In this document: piece after piece, positions 1 to 60,542 of the stretch
How the letters are laid out: every line of letters starts with the position of its first letter
How positions within the stretch are numbered: the first letter of the stretch is position 1
Assembly (NCBI GenBank): GCA_005116745.1
Contig: SWDS01000006.1
Span: forward strand, 473,708-537,707
DNA length: 64,000 nt
Direction of reading: 5' to 3'
DNA from: Nitrospira sp.
GTDB lineage: Bacteria > Nitrospirota > Nitrospiria > Nitrospirales > Nitrospiraceae
Made by a program: the position numbers and the translations under genes
Notes under the pieces: model-generated
Database searches by the model: none
Told to the model about the DNA's origin: nothing
Seen by the model: the letters and a program-made list of their open reading frames with translations, nothing else

Positions 1-600
1 GTGGAGTCGTTCAGCAACGCACTTTAATAGCTGGTCACCGACATTGTGACCCATGGTATCGTTCACAGGTTTGAAATGATCCAGGTCGAGTAACATGAGA
101 CCGAGAGGCTGTTGAAGCCGTTTACTACGCGCCATGGCTTGGATCAGGCGATCACGAAACAATGTGCGGTTCACAAGGCCCGTCAGCTGATCATATTGGG
201 CCAGGTAGGTCAGCCGCTCTTCAGCCCGTTTTCGCTCAATGGCATAGCGGATTGAGCGAGCCAATAGCTCCGACGGCCCTTGTCCCTTGACGAGGTAATC
301 CTGTGCTCCATTCCGGAGAGCCTGTAGCGCGAGCGTTTGATCATTGAGCCCACTGAGCACAATGATGGCAATCGTCGGATTCGCGGCTTGCATTTGACGC
401 ACGGTTGAGAGCCCATAACCGTCCGGGAGTGATAGGTCGAGAAGGACGGCGTCAAAACGTATGCGCGCGAGGCGGGTGACAGCGTCGCTCAGGCGGGTCA
501 CATGGATGATCTCGAATTCTTCCATGCCCCATTCCGATAGAATATCTTGAGTCAGGCGTGCATCAACGTCGTTGTCTTCGACTAATAGGATCTTGATCAT
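1..600 (-). CDS. Response regulator (REC) fused to GGDEF diguanylate cyclase, truncated by the window edge
   Basis: Not in the ORF track; translated by hand from ATG at 600: MIKILLVEDNDVDARL...FDAVLLDLSLPDG...GAQDYLVKG...IERKRAEERLTYLAQYDQLTGLVNRTLFRDRL...LMLLDLDHFKPVNDTMGHNVGDQLL. GGAG lies upstream of the ATG. Confidence 0.93.
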   Translation of the reverse strand, partial: MIKILLVEDNDVDARLTQDILSEWGMEEFEIIHVTRLSDAVTRLARIRFDAVLLDLSLPDGYGLSTVRQMQAANPTIAIIVLSGLNDQTLALQALRNGAQDYLVKGQGPSELLARSIRYAIERKRAEERLTYLAQYDQLTGLVNRTLFRDRLIQAMARSKRLQQPLGLMLLDLDHFKPVNDTMGHNVGDQLLKCVAERLH

Positions 601-1049
601 CGCGCTCCAGGCCTGAGCTTTTTCCTAACCTCCTCCCAACCACTGTTTCACGCACGTACTAAGTATAGCTTAAGATACTGAATCAACAAGCAAATCCAGG
701 AAGTGTTGACATGCTCGAGCCCTCGTCAGAGTGCCTGCGCCGCCACGGTCTGGTCGGTATCTCGGATGTGCGATGCGTACGAAGGCAATAGAGGGTGGAA
801 TACCATAAGAGGCATGCTTCGACTTGGAGAACATAATTTCGTCTGCAGGTGTAGCTCTTTGGCTGTTTGCGCGGGACGGAATTGTGGCGGGCTGGTTGGT
901 CAATGAGACACTAAGACACTCTCTGGCGAGAACTTGGAAGACCGGCGGATTTTTATCGGGTCAAGACCCAGAACTAGTCTGGGCACTCCCAATACGTTAC
1001 ATCGCTCTTAGGCAAAAGAGAGCAGAAGGACTCTGCTCGATGGGCTCAA

Positions 1050-1391
1050 TCACGAGCCGCGAGAAAGGATGCGAGGATTGCTCGGATACGTGCCGATTGG
1101 GCCCTGCTCTGGGCCGATCCCAGCTTCACAGGCATATCCTGCTTCGAAGGGCCATAGTAACGAACGGCCAACAGCGCTGCCACGAATGTGAATATATCGC
1201 AATGTGACACCCATACGAGCGGCGTCGTCCTTTACCTTCTCAGTGCATTCACCGGGTGAATAACCTCGACGCGAAATCAAGAGCGGCTCACCCGATGTGC
1301 TGAGAACAGAGAATTCGCTTGCACATCCTGTGACTGAGAGCAGCACACACAGAATACCGCCAAGTCGACCGAGCACTCTCCCTTGACCCAT
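1050..1391 (-). CDS. Hypothetical lipoprotein
   Basis: From ATG 1391: MGQGRVLGRLGGILCVLLSVTG-C, a lipobox-like signal. The ORF track extends the start to 1487. Confidence 0.65.
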   Translation of the reverse strand: MGQGRVLGRLGGILCVLLSVTGCASEFSVLSTSGEPLLISRRGYSPGECTEKVKDDAARMGVTLRYIHIRGSAVGRSLLWPFEAGYACEAGIGPEQGPIGTYPSNPRILSRGS

Positions 1392-1547
1392 CGTAAATCG
1401 CCCCCATCCAGCAGGTTTGTCCACGGGCACACCGCTGACAACAGACCAAACCATACCACGAACAACCTTTCCCAATCGACTGAACAATAACGTGCGCTTG
1501 AACAGTTCAGCGGGGTAAAAGGGAAGAGCCGTTGAACACTGACCGAA

Positions 1548-1763
1548 TTAGACCGGCTTCTCTGCGATATACTCGATGTATTTCCAGAACTGCTTAGCGT
1601 CTTCCTCGTTCAACACCACCGGAGTGTTATTGGCTGTTCCTGTCATATAGATCTTGACCGACATCGCATCATGCCAGATCTGCAGCTCACAGTGAGAGAT
1701 CAGATCCAGGTTGAACGCATGGTTTCCGATTTGGACAAAGTGCATAACATTTCCTCTTTCCAA
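1548..1763 (-). CDS. Small hypothetical protein (71 aa)
   Basis: Protein-like composition (MHFVQIGNHAFNLDLISHCELQIWHD...); sigma54-like site about 65 bp upstream. Confidence 0.7.
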   Translation of the reverse strand: MERGNVMHFVQIGNHAFNLDLISHCELQIWHDAMSVKIYMTGTANNTPVVLNEEDAKQFWKYIEYIAEKPV

Positions 1764-2025: not shown

Positions 2026-3237
2026 ATGGATGACATGGATTCGATCACCGCTCTTTGGGAATGGCTCACTCGCGATGTCACGGTTGTCGGTGGGCTTCAG
2101 AGTCCCGTGCTGAGCTGGATTGGTGCTGTGGGGATCTTGGTCCTGTTTCTTTGGCATAGCGCGATGTTCCTCAGAGGTTTGTTCCACATCCAAGGGACGC
2201 TTGCGCGCTTTCACTTGTCCGTCGCGCCTTTGGTATTGGCACGGCAACAGGTGTCCAAAGATTGGCTGGTTATTCCGGCGTTGGCAAAAAAGCGAGCGCG
2301 TCTCGATGTCTCGTCAGAAACGCGACGCGATCTTGACGATCTGCATACATTGGATCAGGCGGTACGGTCAGAACAGGATTTTGCCAGAGACTGGTTTTCA
2401 TACCGCAAGACCCTCGCGGTAGAGCAGTCCGCCTGGTTTCTTGAGCCGACCGTCCATAGTCAGCGTTCCGCCAGTGAGTTTTTCTCGTTCGAATCTCTCT
2501 GCGCAGCCCATCTCAATGTCCGCTTTTACCGGCAGCTGCCCGCTTTCATGACGGGCATGGGGTTGATGTTCACCTTCCTCGCCATCTTGATCGGCCTCAG
2601 CAAGCTCCATGCGAACGGATCGGAGATCGATGGCATCCAAGGACTGATCAACGGCCTCTCAGGAAAGTTTGTGACATCCATCGTCGGCTTGGCCTGCGCC
2701 AATGCATTCACCCTCCTCGAACATTCTTTCTGGCATCGGTTGGACAACCGACACGGGGAGTGCATCTCCCTCCTGGACGAAATGTTTCCGCAGAGGGCTA
2801 CGGACCAACATTCCCAGGGGGGCCCATCGCCGAACGGATCTCCGGTGGCCATCGCCACTCCCATCCGAGGCGACACCGCACATCAGCTTGTCGAGGCCGT
2901 GCAGCAGCGCCTCGGGTCCACCGTCGCAGCGCTGAACTCAGCCGCAGAATCCCTCACGGCGCTGCAATCCAATCATCCACCGATGAAGTTTGATGATTTG
3001 CCAGCGGAGATTGGTCACGAGGTCCAGCGGGCGTTACGACCCATAATGAATCCCATACTGGACGCTATTCAAGACCTCAACCGTTCGATGAAGGAGCATG
3101 CTTCCCCAGTGCGGCTGTCTCAAGCCGAGATCGAAGCGATGTTTCAGGATCTCAGGAATACCACCGCCGCAACGACAGAACCTGCACGTCCGATCCATAA
3201 AGATCGCAATGCAGGAAAACCATCTCGTCTCACCTGA
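2026..3237 (+). CDS. zorA: ZorA-like MotA/TolQ/ExbB-family ion-channel subunit with cytoplasmic tail
   Basis: Three TM segments (IGAVGILVLFLW; LPAFMTGMGLMFTFLAILIGL; GLSGKFVTSIVGLACA), a ZorA-type 'ASEFFSFESL...N.RFYRQLP' segment before TM2, and a helical C-terminal tail of about 170 aa. Confidence 0.75.
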   Translation: MDDMDSITALWEWLTRDVTVVGGLQSPVLSWIGAVGILVLFLWHSAMFLRGLFHIQGTLARFHLSVAPLVLARQQVSKDWLVIPALAKKRARLDVSSETRRDLDDLHTLDQAVRSEQDFARDWFSYRKTLAVEQSAWFLEPTVHSQRSASEFFSFESLCAAHLNVRFYRQLPAFMTGMGLMFTFLAILIGLSKLHANGSEIDGIQGLINGLSGKFVTSIVGLACANAFTLLEHSFWHRLDNRHGECISLLDEMFPQRATDQHSQGGPSPNGSPVAIATPIRGDTAHQLVEAVQQRLGSTVAALNSAAESLTALQSNHPPMKFDDLPAEIGHEVQRALRPIMNPILDAIQDLNRSMKEHASPVRLSQAEIEAMFQDLRNTTAATTEPARPIHKDRNAGKPSRLT

Positions 3238-3252
3238 AACAGCACGGAGGAA

Positions 3253-3894
3253 ATGAAAGGGATGAAGTCGAGCTTTACACTGGACTCGCGTGACAACTCA
3301 GCGGTGGTGACGAGTGGGGTTGCCGATCTTATGACCTCGCTCGCCGTCATCTTCATTCTCTTGCTCGTGGCCTATATGACTCGCGTCGAGGATGGACATA
3401 CCAATTTGGCCAAGAGCCGTGGTACTCCAACGGACAGCACACCGAGAATCGATCCACCTCATCCAGCCCTGGAAACTAAAATGCCAAGCACCCACACGAT
3501 TACGGTGCCGGATACGGCGATTACCTTTGAGTTTGGGAAAAGCACGTTGCTCCAGACGGCCGAGATCTTCTTGTCCGAGACCATGCCACACTACGCCTCA
3601 CTCGTCTGCACGCCTGGAGAGCAAGAAGTAGAAGCCTTTGTGATCGAGGGATACACCGATGATCTGGGTGACGACATACGTAATCTGAGACTCAGTCAGG
3701 AACGCTCTTTTGCGGTGCTGGCCAAAAGCTTGGAAGTGATCCGCGAGAAGCTTCCGTGGGCCTATGAGTGCTTCTTGCAGAAAGCCACCGCGAATGGGCG
3801 TGGGAGGCAGGATCTTTTACGGAATGAGATAGGGCAACCAGCCCGCGAAAAAAGCCGCCGTGTCATGTTCAAAATCCACATGCGCCCCACGTAG
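3253..3894 (+). CDS. zorB: ZorB-like MotB/OmpA-family protein
   Basis: N-terminal TM with conserved Asp (VADLMTSLAVIFILLL); OmpA-C peptidoglycan-binding motifs (ITFEFGKS, IEGYTD, NLRLSQERS, SRRVMFKI); GGAGGA RBS; directly follows the ZorA-like gene. Confidence 0.78.
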   Translation: MKGMKSSFTLDSRDNSAVVTSGVADLMTSLAVIFILLLVAYMTRVEDGHTNLAKSRGTPTDSTPRIDPPHPALETKMPSTHTITVPDTAITFEFGKSTLLQTAEIFLSETMPHYASLVCTPGEQEVEAFVIEGYTDDLGDDIRNLRLSQERSFAVLAKSLEVIREKLPWAYECFLQKATANGRGRQDLLRNEIGQPAREKSRRVMFKIHMRPT

Positions 3895-4014
3895 CGTGTG
3901 AGCCTACACAGCGTGGACCTCTTTTCTGCCATCGCTGGCTTGGGTGGAGTAAGACCTCAGCGCCATTCGGCTCTCGCCTGTCTCCGACTGTTAAGGATAG
4001 ATGGGCGAGAAGCC

Positions 4015-4812
4015 TCATCCATAAATGCGGCGGGTCAGTTCAATAAACTGCTCGATGGAAAGGATTTCCGCACGGAGAGAAGGCGAGAGTGCAAGCGCTT
4101 CCAACGCAGCTGCCACTAGCTTCTGATCGTACCCCTGATCTTTCAGTGAATTGATGAGCGTCTTGCGGCGGTGGGCGAAGGCGGCTTTCACCAGTGCTGC
4201 AAATTTGGCCTCTTCTTCCTGGTTCAGTGCTCTCTGATGCTTGGTCTTGAGCAGAACCACTGCAGAGCCGACTTGCGGTCGTGGTCGGAAGCACTGGGCA
4301 GAGACTCGAAATGCTTTCGTGATCTCTGCCGCATATTGTGCCATGACGGAGAGGACTCCGTAGTCCGAACTTCCGGGTTTGGCCACGAGTCGATCAGCTA
4401 CTTCATTCTGCAGCATCAGCACCATACGGGGGAATCGATCGCGTCGATCGAGAAGCCGGAAGAGGAGGGGAGTGGATAAATAATAGGGAAGATTGGCGAC
4501 GACGATGGTGCCGCTCGGAAGCTGCTCGACCGGATAGGTCATCGCATCGTCGAGGACAAGCATGAGATTGGAAAACTGGGGCTGTTGTTCAGTTAAGAAC
4601 GCATGGAGCCGAGGATCGACTTCGATCGCCGTCACGTGGCCACTCGCACGACACAGCGCTTCGGTGAGGATGCCGCGGCCTGGCCCGATTTCCAACGCGG
4701 CATGAGTTGGGGTGAGCTCAGCCAGTGCGATGATTTTACGAACAATGTTGGGGTCGATGAGAAAGTTCTGCCCAAGGCGTTTGATCGCGGCAGGGGGAAG
4801 AGAGGAGTTCAC
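4015..4812 (-). CDS. rsmA: 16S rRNA m6,2A dimethyltransferase RsmA/KsgA
   Basis: KRLGQNFLID, LEIGPGRG, VVANLPYY, LMLQNEVA.R, FRPRPQVGSAV, AFAHRRKTL. Probable GTG start at 4812 (ORF track gives 4881). Confidence 0.97.
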   Translation of the reverse strand: MNSSLPPAAIKRLGQNFLIDPNIVRKIIALAELTPTHAALEIGPGRGILTEALCRASGHVTAIEVDPRLHAFLTEQQPQFSNLMLVLDDAMTYPVEQLPSGTIVVANLPYYLSTPLLFRLLDRRDRFPRMVLMLQNEVADRLVAKPGSSDYGVLSVMAQYAAEITKAFRVSAQCFRPRPQVGSAVVLLKTKHQRALNQEEEAKFAALVKAAFAHRRKTLINSLKDQGYDQKLVAAALEALALSPSLRAEILSIEQFIELTRRIYG

Positions 4813-4814
4813 AC

Positions 4815-5132
4815 TCAACTCCGAGTTGGTGGAGCCTGGGCCAATTGCTTGGCCAATATACCCAGAGGCGTGCGATAGCACTCCACAAGATCCGTGAACT
4901 CTTCAACCAAATCATGAGTAAACGATGGCCCTGGTTGGACGCTCGCGAAGAGTTGTCCTTCCCGATCGCCTACGGAATTGGTGAGAAACGCGACTGTGCG
5001 GGCTTTCCATTTTTCTATTCGTTCCGTTCCAGCGACGGTGTTCAGGTCTTGAAGAGTCTGTTTCTCAAGCGTCTCCAATTCGTCCATCTGACGTCGAACT
5101 ACGGCAAGGCCCTTCGAAATATCAAGCGACAC
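4815..5132 (-). CDS. Hypothetical protein (105 aa)
   Basis: Fills the gap between pdxA and rsmA on the same strand and overlaps the pdxA end. Confidence 0.7.
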   Translation of the reverse strand: MSLDISKGLAVVRRQMDELETLEKQTLQDLNTVAGTERIEKWKARTVAFLTNSVGDREGQLFASVQPGPSFTHDLVEEFTDLVECYRTPLGILAKQLAQAPPTRS

Positions 5133-11079: not shown

Positions 11080-11095
11080 TGGCATGTAGTTTGCT
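11080..11095 (+). promoter_or_regulatory. Sigma54 promoter
   Basis: TGGCATGTAGTTTGCT, a near-perfect TGGCAC-N5-TTGCW match about 87 bp upstream of the beta-barrel gene. Confidence 0.7.
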
Positions 11096-11181
11096 GAACC
11101 TTCTTGTGAGCGTCCAAGAAAGGACTTTGCGATCATCCAGTCCACGACAGAGTTGGAGATGGGCAATCCGGAGTGGTTCTC

Positions 11182-11952
11182 ATGAAACAACGATGTCCTG
11201 CGTGGGTTTACACATGGATCTTCACTGCGACGTTGTTGCACGCGTCGCTGACATCGGTTCTGACCATACCGAATGCCTATTCAGAAATGTACGTTGGAGG
11301 TCAAATCGGTACCACATTGTTCGGCGACAACAACAAGCTCACCAGAGTCGACCTGACCGATCTTGGTGGTCCTCCAGGATCCACGCTCACTCCTCCCGGA
11401 TCGATGTCAGGTCGTGATTTGGCCAGCTCCCCAGTACTAGGCGGGAAAATCGGGTATTACTTTCCGCAAGTGCCATGGCTTGGTCTAGAGCTGGAAGGCT
11501 ACTATACGACTCCTCACATTGAGCAACAATCGACAAGACTCAGCTTTATTCCTGGATCGATCTTGAATGGCGTCGGTCAGATAGCTGGTGGAGATACAAT
11601 AAGTGGTTTTTCAGGGGATCTTTTTCGAGTCATTACGGTTGCTCCATTTAATCTCATGTTGCGGTATCACAAGACAAGGTTTCAACCCTATGTTGGGATT
11701 GGTCCTGGAGTATTTATGGCCCGGGTCAAAACCATAGTATCGGGATTTGAAGGGACGCAGAGTTCAACCAGGGTAGGTCTGAACGTCAAGCTCGGTGGCG
11801 AATACTTTTTCACACGACACATCTCTGGATTCGGAGAAGTCAGATATAACTACACGACTTTCAATTTTGACGCCAACGACGCAGGAGCCTTTGGATTTAC
11901 AGCTATTTATAATCCGGTCATTTTTTCCTTCGGAGTCAATTACCACTTCTAG
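11182..11952 (+). CDS. Outer-membrane beta-barrel protein (OmpW/OmpA-TM like)
   Basis: Signal peptide, alternating beta-strand pattern (YVGGQIG, QPYVGIGPG, GFGEVRYNY) and terminal FGVNYHF; GGAG RBS before ATG 11182. Confidence 0.88.
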   Translation: MKQRCPAWVYTWIFTATLLHASLTSVLTIPNAYSEMYVGGQIGTTLFGDNNKLTRVDLTDLGGPPGSTLTPPGSMSGRDLASSPVLGGKIGYYFPQVPWLGLELEGYYTTPHIEQQSTRLSFIPGSILNGVGQIAGGDTISGFSGDLFRVITVAPFNLMLRYHKTRFQPYVGIGPGVFMARVKTIVSGFEGTQSSTRVGLNVKLGGEYFFTRHISGFGEVRYNYTTFNFDANDAGAFGFTAIYNPVIFSFGVNYHF

Positions 11953-59129: not shown

Positions 59130-60542
59130 TCAGCGATTCGAAACTTTTTTGACCATTCCACTGTATTGGGATGTGTCACGAGTGTTGCGTGTAACCTGCT
59201 CGTCTGTTTCACCTGTGGAGGCGATTGGCTGAGGTGATTGGGTCACGACAATCTCAACCCGCCGGTTCTTGCTCCGGCCTTCTTCCGTATCGTTGGTCGC
59301 GATGGGCCGTGCGTCCGCATACCCGACAGCTCTAACGCGGTCGACCCCTAACCCTCCCTTAACCAACGCCTTGCCGGCATTTTCGGCGCGCGCCTGAGAA
59401 AGCTCAGCGTTATCCTTAAACGGCCGCCGAGGATTGTACTTGACCGGTATGCTGTCGGTATGTCCGGCGACTTCGACGCTCTCGGGACGGAACTTACGCA
59501 AGGCCACGCCGATTCGCTTGACTAAGGAGTTTCCCGCCGCCGTCATGGTCACTCGTCCTATGCCAAACAGTTCACCCGACGACAATGCGAGCGTGAGTTT
59601 GTCGCCGCGCTGCTCTAACACCACGGTGCCTCGTTTGAGTTCGTCCTGGAGGGCGCTCGCCAGCTTCTCGCTGACCCGAGAGAGGTCAGTCGTGGCACGC
59701 GCCGTCGTGATGGTTGGCTGAGGCAGTGCATTCTTGGCGTAGGAAGGCAGTTTGACCGGTTTCGGCAAGCTCTTACCTAGGCTCGTGAGTAGGCGTTTCG
59801 CCTGCACGAGCTGAGAGTCGCGAGCGGCGAGTTCCATATCCATGTTGGCCTTGGCCAGCTGGAATTCCTGCTCTTTCGCCACCAATTGCAGGTCAAGGTC
59901 GGCAATCCGTTGCATCGCGGTATCAAGCTGGTCATTGTTGGTGGCAAATTGCCGCTCAATGTCGAAGACTTGTTGTCTGGCCAACTCCAGGCTGCTTCGT
60001 GTCCGGTTCAGCTCCTGCGACATATACTGGTGGGTGTCCCGTTGGGTACAGAGCCCTGCGAGTTCCTGCTCCTTTTGGGTCAGCTGCGCTTCCAAGGCTT
60101 CCGCGCGAGTCTTTTCGACGGTCACCTGATTCGCTGCCGCAGTCGTCTTCTCTCGCAGAAGGGACAACTCTTTCTCTTTAGCCGTGAGCTGTTCGAGGAG
60201 TTGCTCCAGCCGGACTGTTTCCTTCTCTGCTTCAGAAGATTGGCTCTGGGGTGTGTCGATCGTAATCGACGTCATAGGCGTAATTGACGGAGCCAGTGAC
60301 GTCTCGTCGCCGTCGACTTTGTGAACATACGAGCCCGCCTCGTAGTCCTGTTGAGCGTGCCGAGCATCGGTCGGGGTCAAGAATCCGACGAGCATGGCCA
60401 GAAGAGAACGTTGACCATTGTCCGATTGAACCGCAGTCGGCTGGCTGTCGGCAATGGACTGAGTGGCCGCAGCCTGACTCGATTCCTGTCCATTGACCAT
60501 GAAGGTGAAGAGAAACGCGAAAGCGACCAGCTTCATAATCAT
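59130..60542 (-). CDS. Exported coiled-coil protein with C-terminal MotB/OmpA domain
   Basis: Signal peptide, long heptad region, then GELF, VAGHTD..P, N..LSQARA, GY....PIA.N....GR.KNRRVEI. Confidence 0.9.
   Translation of the reverse strand: MIMKLVAFAFLFTFMVNGQESSQAAATQSIADSQPTAVQSDNGQRSLLAMLVGFLTPTDARHAQQDYEAGSYVHKVDGDETSLAPSITPMTSITIDTPQSQSSEAEKETVRLEQLLEQLTAKEKELSLLREKTTAAANQVTVEKTRAEALEAQLTQKEQELAGLCTQRDTHQYMSQELNRTRSSLELARQQVFDIERQFATNNDQLDTAMQRIADLDLQLVAKEQEFQLAKANMDMELAARDSQLVQAKRLLTSLGKSLPKPVKLPSYAKNALPQPTITTARATTDLSRVSEKLASALQDELKRGTVVLEQRGDKLTLALSSGELFGIGRVTMTAAGNSLVKRIGVALRKFRPESVEVAGHTDSIPVKYNPRRPFKDNAELSQARAENAGKALVKGGLGVDRVRAVGYADARPIATNDTEEGRSKNRRVEIVVTQSPQPIASTGETDEQVTRNTRDTSQYSGMVKKVSNR

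Follow-up and report, generated by a model that had tools for sequence, protein, structure and literature searches.

The DNA analysed here is a stretch of 64,000 nucleotides (nt) from Nitrospira sp. contig SWDS01000006.1, referred to below as the window, and all coordinates are positions within it. Two genes on its forward strand, A (2026–3237, +) and B (3253–3894, +), form a two-gene operon that encodes relatives of ZorA and ZorB, the motor proteins of the Zorya anti-phage systems. A first-pass annotation had described this operon together with several motifs of protein A, which are indeed present in the sequence, and had read it as a Zorya-type motor without an effector in a housekeeping neighbourhood: the fit of both proteins to ZorA and ZorB and the effector-free contexts described below support this reading. 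The pair is ZorAB-like and is not a canonical Zorya system. We consider it very probable that it forms a proton-driven, peptidoglycan-anchored motor of the ZorAB lineage, and our favoured interpretation, which we hold with moderate confidence, is that of an inducible, effector-less motor that serves as an envelope or stress device rather than as a defence system. The two proteins, with lengths in amino acids (aa), their transmembrane (TM) helices and the confidence scores (pLDDT) of their predicted models, are made up as follows:

2026–3237, + strand: gene A, ZorA-like motor subunit of 403 aa, ATG start at 2026 (PADLOC, PDB profile and fold)
2104–2175, + strand: TM1 of A, residues 27–50 (hydropathy; AlphaFold2 helix 28–82, pLDDT 87–93)
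2326–2517, + strand: membrane-proximal cytoplasmic domain of A, residues 101–164 (AlphaFold2 secondary structure; aligns with residues 68–140 of E. coli ZorA, EcZorA)
2413–2460, + strand: beta-hairpin of A, residues 130–145, a mark of Zorya-type A subunits (AlphaFold2)
2518–2793, + strand: pore-forming TM2-TM3 core of A, residues 165–256 (hidden Markov model (HMM) alignment to 8qyk_A)
2794–2877, + strand: Pro/Gly-rich variable linker of A, residues 257–284 (pLDDT ~31–43; poorly conserved)
2878–3171, + strand: short helical tail of A, helices 285–316, 325–357 and 366–382 (AlphaFold2)
3253–3894, + strand: gene B, ZorB/MotB-type subunit of 213 aa (PADLOC, Pfam and fold)
3316–3390, + strand: TM helix of B, residues 22–46 (aligns with E. 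coli ZorB, EcZorB, around Asp26)
3325–3327, + strand: invariant Asp25 of B, within GVADLMTSLAV (alignment)
3391–3495, + strand: Pro-rich variable periplasmic linker of B, residues 47–81 (predicted to be disordered)
3496–3891, + strand: OmpA-like peptidoglycan-binding domain of B, residues 82–213 (Pfam, alignment and fold)

Protein A fits ZorA better than MotA, ExbB or TolQ, both by sequence profile and by predicted fold. Amongst the PADLOC models only those of ZorA were matched, the best being ZorA1 PDLC00598 (3e-18, 63.5 bits) with a match that spans the motor part only (profile positions 30–222 of 663). A profile of the A family retrieved exclusively ZorA chains from the PDB (8vvn_C, 4e-17; 8qyk_A, 5e-16; 8qyd_A, 1e-14; 8vvi_F, 7e-7), with no MotA, ExbB or TolQ chain at E<=1, and protein A had no match in the local Pfam copy, MotA_ExbB included. 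The AlphaFold2 monomer model of A has a mean pLDDT of 65.6, with the TM helices and the cytoplasmic domain mostly at 80–93; comparison of this model using Foldseek, with TM-scores normalised to the target chain, gave E values of ~3e-8 to 1e-6 and TM-scores of 0.62–0.74 for ZorA, followed by TolQ/ExbB as the second-best fold (E>=1.5e-3, TM-score 0.35–0.48) and MotA/PomA (E>=0.05, TM-score ~0.3). The model runs from TM1 through helices with a beta-hairpin (130–145) to TM2, TM3 and a helical C-terminus: this layout, hairpin included, has been reported for ZorA (PMC11946911), and the hairpin has been called unique to Zorya-type proteins (PMC12505986). Hydrophobic segments of A lie at residues 27–50 and 171–192, and the polar pore helix at 213–232 aligns with TM3 of ZorA. 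The three-TM, ZorA-type subunit of the first-pass annotation is hence favoured over MotA, ExbB and TolQ by PADLOC, PDB profile and fold alike, these being the families against which it had asked for a comparison. ZorA-like proteins of this kind are already recognised, as Pfam PF28082 (ZorA-like_t1) covers them: it is a precomputed annotation on nearly all listed homologues of A, some of these marked as weak, and the family name is silent on effector-less operons. The NCBIfam cut-offs are missed by both proteins, with best scores of 42.9 bits against a ZorA cut-off of 100 for A and 24.2 bits against a ZorB cut-off of 400 for B.

Protein B matches ZorB1 PDLC00609 end to end in PADLOC (7e-33, 112 bits) and Pfam OmpA at E=2e-7, the domain motif being GYTDDLGDDIRNLRLSQERS, and in the PDB its sequence comes closest to ZorB chains, albeit weakly (E ~0.003). 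The predicted model contains the TM helix, a disordered stretch at residues 48–74 (pLDDT <50) and a generic OmpA-like domain. With the OmpA match and an invariant Asp25, the earlier description of B as a MotB/OmpA protein with a TM Asp stands. The product of another gene in the window (59130–60542, −) also cross-matches the PADLOC ZorB models (ZorB3, 2.9e-19). This protein of 470 aa combines a signal peptide and a long coiled coil with an OmpA domain at its C-terminus (Pfam 6.6e-16), and the cross-match indicates that these models pick up any OmpA protein; as a second stator-like gene this candidate was rejected, being unrelated and without a MotB-type TM Asp.

Residue equivalences were taken from HMM alignment to the E. 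coli Zor proteins and conservation from alignments of up to 68 sequences, whilst the roles of the E. coli residues are those given in PMC11946911:

EcZorA Thr147, ion filter: A Thr183 (2572–2574, + strand), invariant or nearly so
EcZorA Ser184, ion filter: A Ser218 (2677–2679, + strand), invariant
EcZorA Pro136, kink: A Pro172, invariant
EcZorA Glu86 and Glu89, Ca2+ site: A Ser125 and Lys128, not kept (HMM alignment only)
EcZorB Asp26, essential Asp: B Asp25, invariant
EcZorB Asn152, Leu155 and Arg159, peptidoglycan binding: B Asn144, Leu147 and Arg151, invariant

Cys119 and Cys173 of B are likewise invariant in the alignments. The type I Zorya ZorAB complexes (EcZorI, PDB 8qyd; Shewanella ANA-3, PDB 8vvn) are the best match to the pair in sequence and in fold: A shares with type I ZorA the three TM helices, the membrane-proximal cytoplasmic domain with its beta-hairpin, the Thr/Ser ion filter, the kink proline and a helical tail with heptad-spaced leucines, and B shares with type I ZorB the essential TM Asp and an OmpA-like domain that retains three of the four tested binding residues. 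In contrast to EcZorB, whose domain of ~200 aa is fused directly to the TM helix, B exhibits a disordered linker of ~30 aa and a smaller domain of ~135 aa.

We regard it as very unlikely that the pair is instead an ordinary stator whose kinship to ZorAB is superficial, be it an alternative flagellar unit of the MotAB/PomAB type or a Ton/Tol energiser. A 5:2 architecture is common to all such motors, and one source labels a homologue of A as a MotA/TolQ/ExbB proton channel protein. The flagellar version can point to protein B, with a TM Asp, a flexible periplasmic linker and a MotB-like, OmpA-type peptidoglycan anchor as in MotB and PomB, to the probable engagement of the cell wall only upon activation, and to the fact that sigma-54, a candidate regulator of this operon (see below), controls flagellar genes in many bacteria; MotA, however, has four TM helices and binds FliG through its cytoplasmic domain, whereas A has three TM helices and the ZorA-type hairpin domain, and the fold match to MotA/PomA is poor. 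TolQR and ExbBD are also 5:2 proton-driven motors, with three TM helices of the same topology in the A subunit, and are likewise housekeeping, chromosomally fixed envelope machines, but their B subunits TolR and ExbD are without OmpA domains, unlike protein B, and they act via TolA or TonB, neither of which is encoded near A and B. In none of the contexts of the pair are flagellar, TonB or TolA genes adjacent, and the Pfam and PDB searches described above gave no MotA_ExbB match and no MotA, ExbB or TolQ chain.

The pair also departs from Zorya in its tail. Following the motor, A contains ~147 aa, which begin with the Pro/Gly-rich linker (the break in the tail noted in the first-pass annotation, at residues 257–284) and of which ~100 aa are helical, with conserved leucines 296, 303 and 310 in heptad spacing. 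The tail of EcZorA, in contrast, comprises 507 aa; its truncation abolishes defence, and long tails have been reported in all Zorya types (PMC11946911). Tail lengths in the best 150 representatives from a library of 1.84 billion proteins fall into three groups: 0–60 aa, effectively tail-less; ~145–165 aa, which is the clade of A; and ~320–480 aa, where those proteins that were tested match ZorA1, in two cases over the full length of the model. The tail-less group contains many proteins of 250–310 aa (P0172, P0174, P0192, P0210, P0216, P0220 and others) whose motor is of the ZorA1 type; of these, P0172 and P0192 were scanned and reach 65–87 bits on PADLOC PDLC00598, those tested have no match in the local Pfam copy, and they may represent a wider, undescribed group of motors. 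Within the clade of A, distant members (P0121–P0143) share a C-terminal R-x-x-W-R/x-hydrophobic-P motif (for example SRAGWRFPRM) that is absent from the lineage of the window and may be a short element for binding a partner or the membrane.

There is also no adjacent zorC or zorD, in contrast to type I Zorya; in type II systems the effector gene is zorE, and in type III the effectors are zorF and zorG. None of the window's 54 other open reading frames (ORFs) matches a ZorA, ZorC, ZorD, ZorE, ZorF or ZorG model at E<=1e-5, and no third gene is conserved beside the pair in 85 related loci representing at least six contexts, in agreement with the earlier remark that no effector can be co-transcribed. 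The pair itself is widespread: a collection clustered at 90% contains 512 homologues of A and 730 of B, and the top 120 homologues of A (59–98% identity) all belong to Nitrospira where an organism is named. A profile search delineated a distinct group of ~25 full-length clusters of ~400 aa, 32–47% identical to A over the full length, with a score gap that divides this ~400-aa clade from the long ZorA proteins; its distant members, where named, are all Nitrospirota, Nitrospiraceae or Nitrospira. Using one genome per GTDB species, a relative of A was found in 229 loci, of which the best 80 show 40–93% identity and are nearly all labelled Nitrospira, Nitrospiraceae or Nitrospirota. B directly follows A in 83 of 83 loci, and both reading frames are intact in every one of them.

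A synteny survey across Nitrospira, as the first-pass annotation had proposed, revealed that nothing but the A–B pair is constant across at least six contexts. The order GGDEF, lipoprotein, A, B, RsmA, PdxA, exchanger, LarC is found in most loci with at least 55% identity, and at least five other contexts occur in more distant lineages, with HflX, an FtsX-type permease, MscS, GspE, FtsK, BipA, peroxiredoxin, Amt/cytochromes or DsbA as neighbours: the contexts are housekeeping in all cases. A metagenome scan anchored on RsmA identified some lineages in which RsmA, the lipoprotein and GGDEF are present and a different gene occupies the A–B slot, with no remnants of A or B in these loci; thus, the cassette has moved as a unit at least once. 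In four such Nitrospira-like loci (L094, L098, L099 and L100) the slot holds a gene of ~164–236 aa on the opposite strand, apparently coding for a secreted protein, and a GGCAT-N5-CTGC motif lies in the slot on the same strand as this gene. A link of the motor to the neighbouring REC-GGDEF gene, which the first-pass annotation had suggested, and with it a link to c-di-GMP, was rejected: outside the window's own lineage, the other contexts of the pair have neither this gene nor the lipoprotein gene and the 65-aa ORF that accompany it.

Within the syntenic set, the identity of A tracks that of its neighbours (Spearman 0.72–0.91, n=55–61), and the GC and GC3 contents are native, GC3 matching the neighbouring genes. 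The ratio of non-synonymous to synonymous substitution rates (dN/dS) amounts to 0.20 over the whole of A and 0.15 over the whole of B; by region, it is 0.02 in TM2-TM3 and 0.11 in the cytoplasmic domain of A, 0.09 in both the TM helix and the peptidoglycan-binding domain of B, 0.20–0.28 in the tail helices of A, and 0.53 and 0.44 in the linkers of A and B, respectively. Amongst the 2.9 million viral contigs of IMG/VR there is no relative of the pair, and a phage origin was rejected on this basis. With housekeeping neighbours, neighbour-tracking divergence, native composition and no IMG/VR relative, the pair does not exhibit the patchy, mobile pattern of defence islands; rather, it is long-standing and selectively maintained in Nitrospira and related Nitrospirota. 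These results also bring the idea of a decaying type I Zorya remnant, which has lost zorCD and most of its tail and retains no function, close to refutation: the tail does fall short of that of the nearest ZorA1-type relatives and no effectors are encoded in the window, but both frames are intact in all 83 loci, dN/dS is only 0.02–0.28 in the structured parts, tail length is uniform (~145–165 aa) in most full-length members of the clade, the promoter element described next is conserved and transcripts have been detected.

Upstream of A, a promoter-like element was identified that sets the pair further apart from type I Zorya, as does its retention within one phylum and in housekeeping contexts. 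The signals surrounding the operon are as follows:

1861–1878, + strand: imperfect inverted repeat TTGCCG-N6-CGGTAA, candidate activator site, ~70 nt upstream of the −24 element
1948–1962, + strand: sigma-54-type −24/−12 element TGGCACAGAAGTTGA, 78 nt before the ATG of A (intergenic alignment)
2014–2017, + strand: ribosome-binding site GAGG, 8 nt before the ATG of A
3887–3930, + strand: hairpin over the stop codon of B followed by a U-rich tract, CUCUUUUCU, candidate operon terminator (fold z-score −1.77)

The consensus of the −24/−12 element, CTGGCAC-N5-TTGAG, is an invariant block in the alignment of the intergenic regions upstream of A, which are 64% identical overall. It occurs in essentially all loci, usually at −48 to −81 relative to the start codon, and 77 of 85 loci match it at 9 or more of 10 consensus positions, 53 of them perfectly, compared with a background of 1.5% (0.03% perfect) in 11,401 sequence windows from the same loci. 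The element is kept in loci where the upstream gene is unrelated and thus belongs to the A–B cassette. The consensus of compiled sigma-54 promoters is TGGCAC-N5-TTGC: the TGGCAC block and the spacing are exact in the element upstream of A, and only the C of the −12 half differs. Canonical TGGCAY-N5-TTGCT sites are present in the same genomes, before an outer-membrane beta-barrel gene (position 11080 of the window) and before an ammonium transporter gene in locus L084. The inverted repeat further upstream has the consensus CTTGCCG-N6-CGGCAAG in relatives; in 52 of 85 loci the 400 nt preceding A contain a TGCC-N6-12-GGCA pattern, which lies at about −137 to −177 in the majority of those inspected, and most of the remaining loci show GGCAA half-sites. 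As this is the usual place for one, the repeat is a candidate binding site for an enhancer-binding activator. Further copies of the repeat, sought as a mark of co-regulated partners, do not occur in the window beyond chance. Judging by the promoter element, sigma-54 dependence of A–B transcription is likely, and the operon's own sigma-54-type promoter together with the upstream repeat makes activator-dependent expression probable. From general knowledge, the arrangement resembles the psp-like sigma-54 envelope-stress operons, likewise membrane/proton-motive-force operons with a −24/−12 promoter and an upstream repeat, an arrangement under which expression would require an enhancer-binding activator; in contrast to psp, there is no homology to Psp proteins and the −12 element is non-canonical.

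Expression of the operon was visible in contigs of four biofilter metatranscriptomes, which cover A and B at a depth of ~1–6, below that of the flanking genes; these contigs are 90–99% alike to the window and hence stem from related strains. The low depth fits low basal, inducible expression, as weak evidence given that contig depth is a poor measure and that DNA may be present. Contigs of two runs join position 3889 to 3996 and so omit 106 nt of the intergenic region between B and RsmA; an indel that distinguishes strains of related Nitrospira is a more probable cause than processing of the RNA.

This promoter, were it to confer low and inducible expression, would also suit a costly abortive system, and the main alternative is a split but functional anti-phage system, in which the ZorAB-like sensor would perceive a disturbance of the envelope by phage and then recruit a nuclease encoded elsewhere or abort infection by itself through dissipation of the proton-motive force. 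The strongest argument for such split or self-sufficient defence is that the closest characterised relatives are the ZorAB of Zorya, and the nearest long relatives match PADLOC ZorA1 end to end; moreover, the residues needed for E. coli Zorya defence in the ion path, the essential Asp and peptidoglycan binding are kept, and the cassette has moved between chromosomal sites. We nevertheless consider it unlikely: there is no effector in the 64 kb or beside the pair in 85 loci, the ~147-aa tail contrasts with the finding that tail truncations abolish defence in E. coli (PMC11946911), and the strong purifying selection and neighbour-tracking divergence differ from the patchy pattern of defence genes, with all contexts being housekeeping and no relative on viral contigs. 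The short tail, the lack of effector genes, the conserved sigma-54-type promoter and the spread across Nitrospira together indicate that the pair is probably not a classical Zorya defence system; whether its role lies outside defence altogether is, in our estimate, an even bet.

For the inducible envelope or stress motor that we favour, the following mechanism can be proposed. Judging by the homologous ZorA5B2 complex, whose structure has been solved, two B subunits would be ringed by five of A, with the OmpA-like domain of B anchoring the complex to peptidoglycan on its flexible Pro-rich linker. Protons would pass via the filter of A (Thr183/Ser218) to Asp25 of B and so drive rotation of A around B, which would turn a short three-helix cytoplasmic tail of ~100 structured residues rather than the 70-nm tail of Zorya. 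A dedicated AAA+ enhancer-binding activator would probably switch on the operon upon a signal; the motor would then engage the cell wall, and the short tail may pass on its rotation to a partner encoded elsewhere, or the output may be controlled proton conduction. The most likely role of such a motor would be that of an inducible device for envelope status or stress without an effector in cis. More tentatively still, the short-tailed ZorAB-type motor of the Nitrospirota could be a lineage-fixed, sigma-54-induced, nuclease-free envelope device, which perhaps represents an ancestral housekeeping state that gave rise to Zorya systems through elongation of the tail and the gain of effectors.

Several observations weigh against this interpretation. 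The −12 half of the promoter reads TTGA in place of the canonical TTGC (GC to GA). No activator with a GAFTGA motif is encoded in the window or in any of the loci except L084. The metatranscriptome contigs can include DNA carry-over, and the tail of A is modelled at low confidence, as is to be expected when a single chain of an oligomeric bundle is modelled. Finally, the chromosomal position of the module differs between Nitrospira lineages through rare relocations, a pattern compatible with an autonomous cassette whatever its function, defence included, and some defence systems are themselves lineage-fixed.

In the literature we found no description of effector-less or orphan ZorAB pairs, of the Nitrospirota clade or of its promoter, and the Zorya structure papers make no mention of stand-alone ZorAB pairs. 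So far, ZorAB is known only from defence, as the half of the system that senses phage and recruits nucleases by means of a long tail; if our interpretation is correct, 5:2 motors of this branch also serve the cell in other ways, here in ecologically important nitrifiers, and the pair would be a minimal system in which to study which signal engages a ZorAB-type motor and what effect a rotating tail has without a nuclease. It also calls for caution, in that matches to ZorA and ZorB profiles by themselves are no indication of a defence system.

The exceptional locus L084 encodes, at 1–1696 (+) and ~6 kb upstream of its A homologue, a dCache-HAMP histidine kinase and a REC-Sigma54_activat response regulator, and a gene for a 1585-aa multicopper-oxidase-like protein separates these two genes from the ZorAB-like pair; all of them share one strand. 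The canonical sigma-54-type element of the window, TGGCATGTAGTTTGCT (11080–11094, +), precedes the ORF at 11173–11952 (+) by ~80 nt; this ORF occupies the position of an outer-membrane beta-barrel gene in related loci (PF13505 in L002), and the element is also present in L010, L011, L013 and L064, with close variants in L031 and L032.

As for the boundaries of the operon, A could alternatively start at a TTG at 2023; the GTGAGGT surrounding its ribosome-binding site is conserved in the intergenic alignment. B could start at an ATG at 3262, which would give the 210-aa form of most database homologues. Support for the candidate terminator hairpin is weak, and it is not among the calls of a consensus scan for sigma-70 promoters and terminators that yielded nothing informative; Rfam contains no riboswitch or known RNA upstream of or within the operon at E<=1. 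The neighbouring genes agree with the earlier description of divergent genes upstream and a converging rsmA downstream: on the minus strand upstream of A lie a 65-aa ORF (1548–1745), a gene for a 113-aa lipoprotein with a lipobox (1050–1391) and the REC-GGDEF gene, which starts near 594–597 and continues past the left edge of the window, whilst RsmA (4015–4881, −; Pfam RrnaAD, 6e-59) converges on B and is followed by PdxA, a Na/Ca exchanger and LarC. The remaining content of the 64 kb is genes of ordinary metabolism.

In PADLOC, RsmA matches the model mad2 at 3.7e-19, and other ORFs of the window match mad3, mad8, RTasRmuC (an RmuC protein), AriA and JetC; all of this has the look of cross-hits from methyltransferase, ATPase and RmuC domains with housekeeping roles rather than of defence systems. 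The lipoprotein gene at 1050–1391 (−), which is without a Pfam family, stays beside REC-GGDEF even where A and B are absent from the site (L094, L098–L100), and exhibits the highest metatranscriptome contig depth of the region (~13–46).

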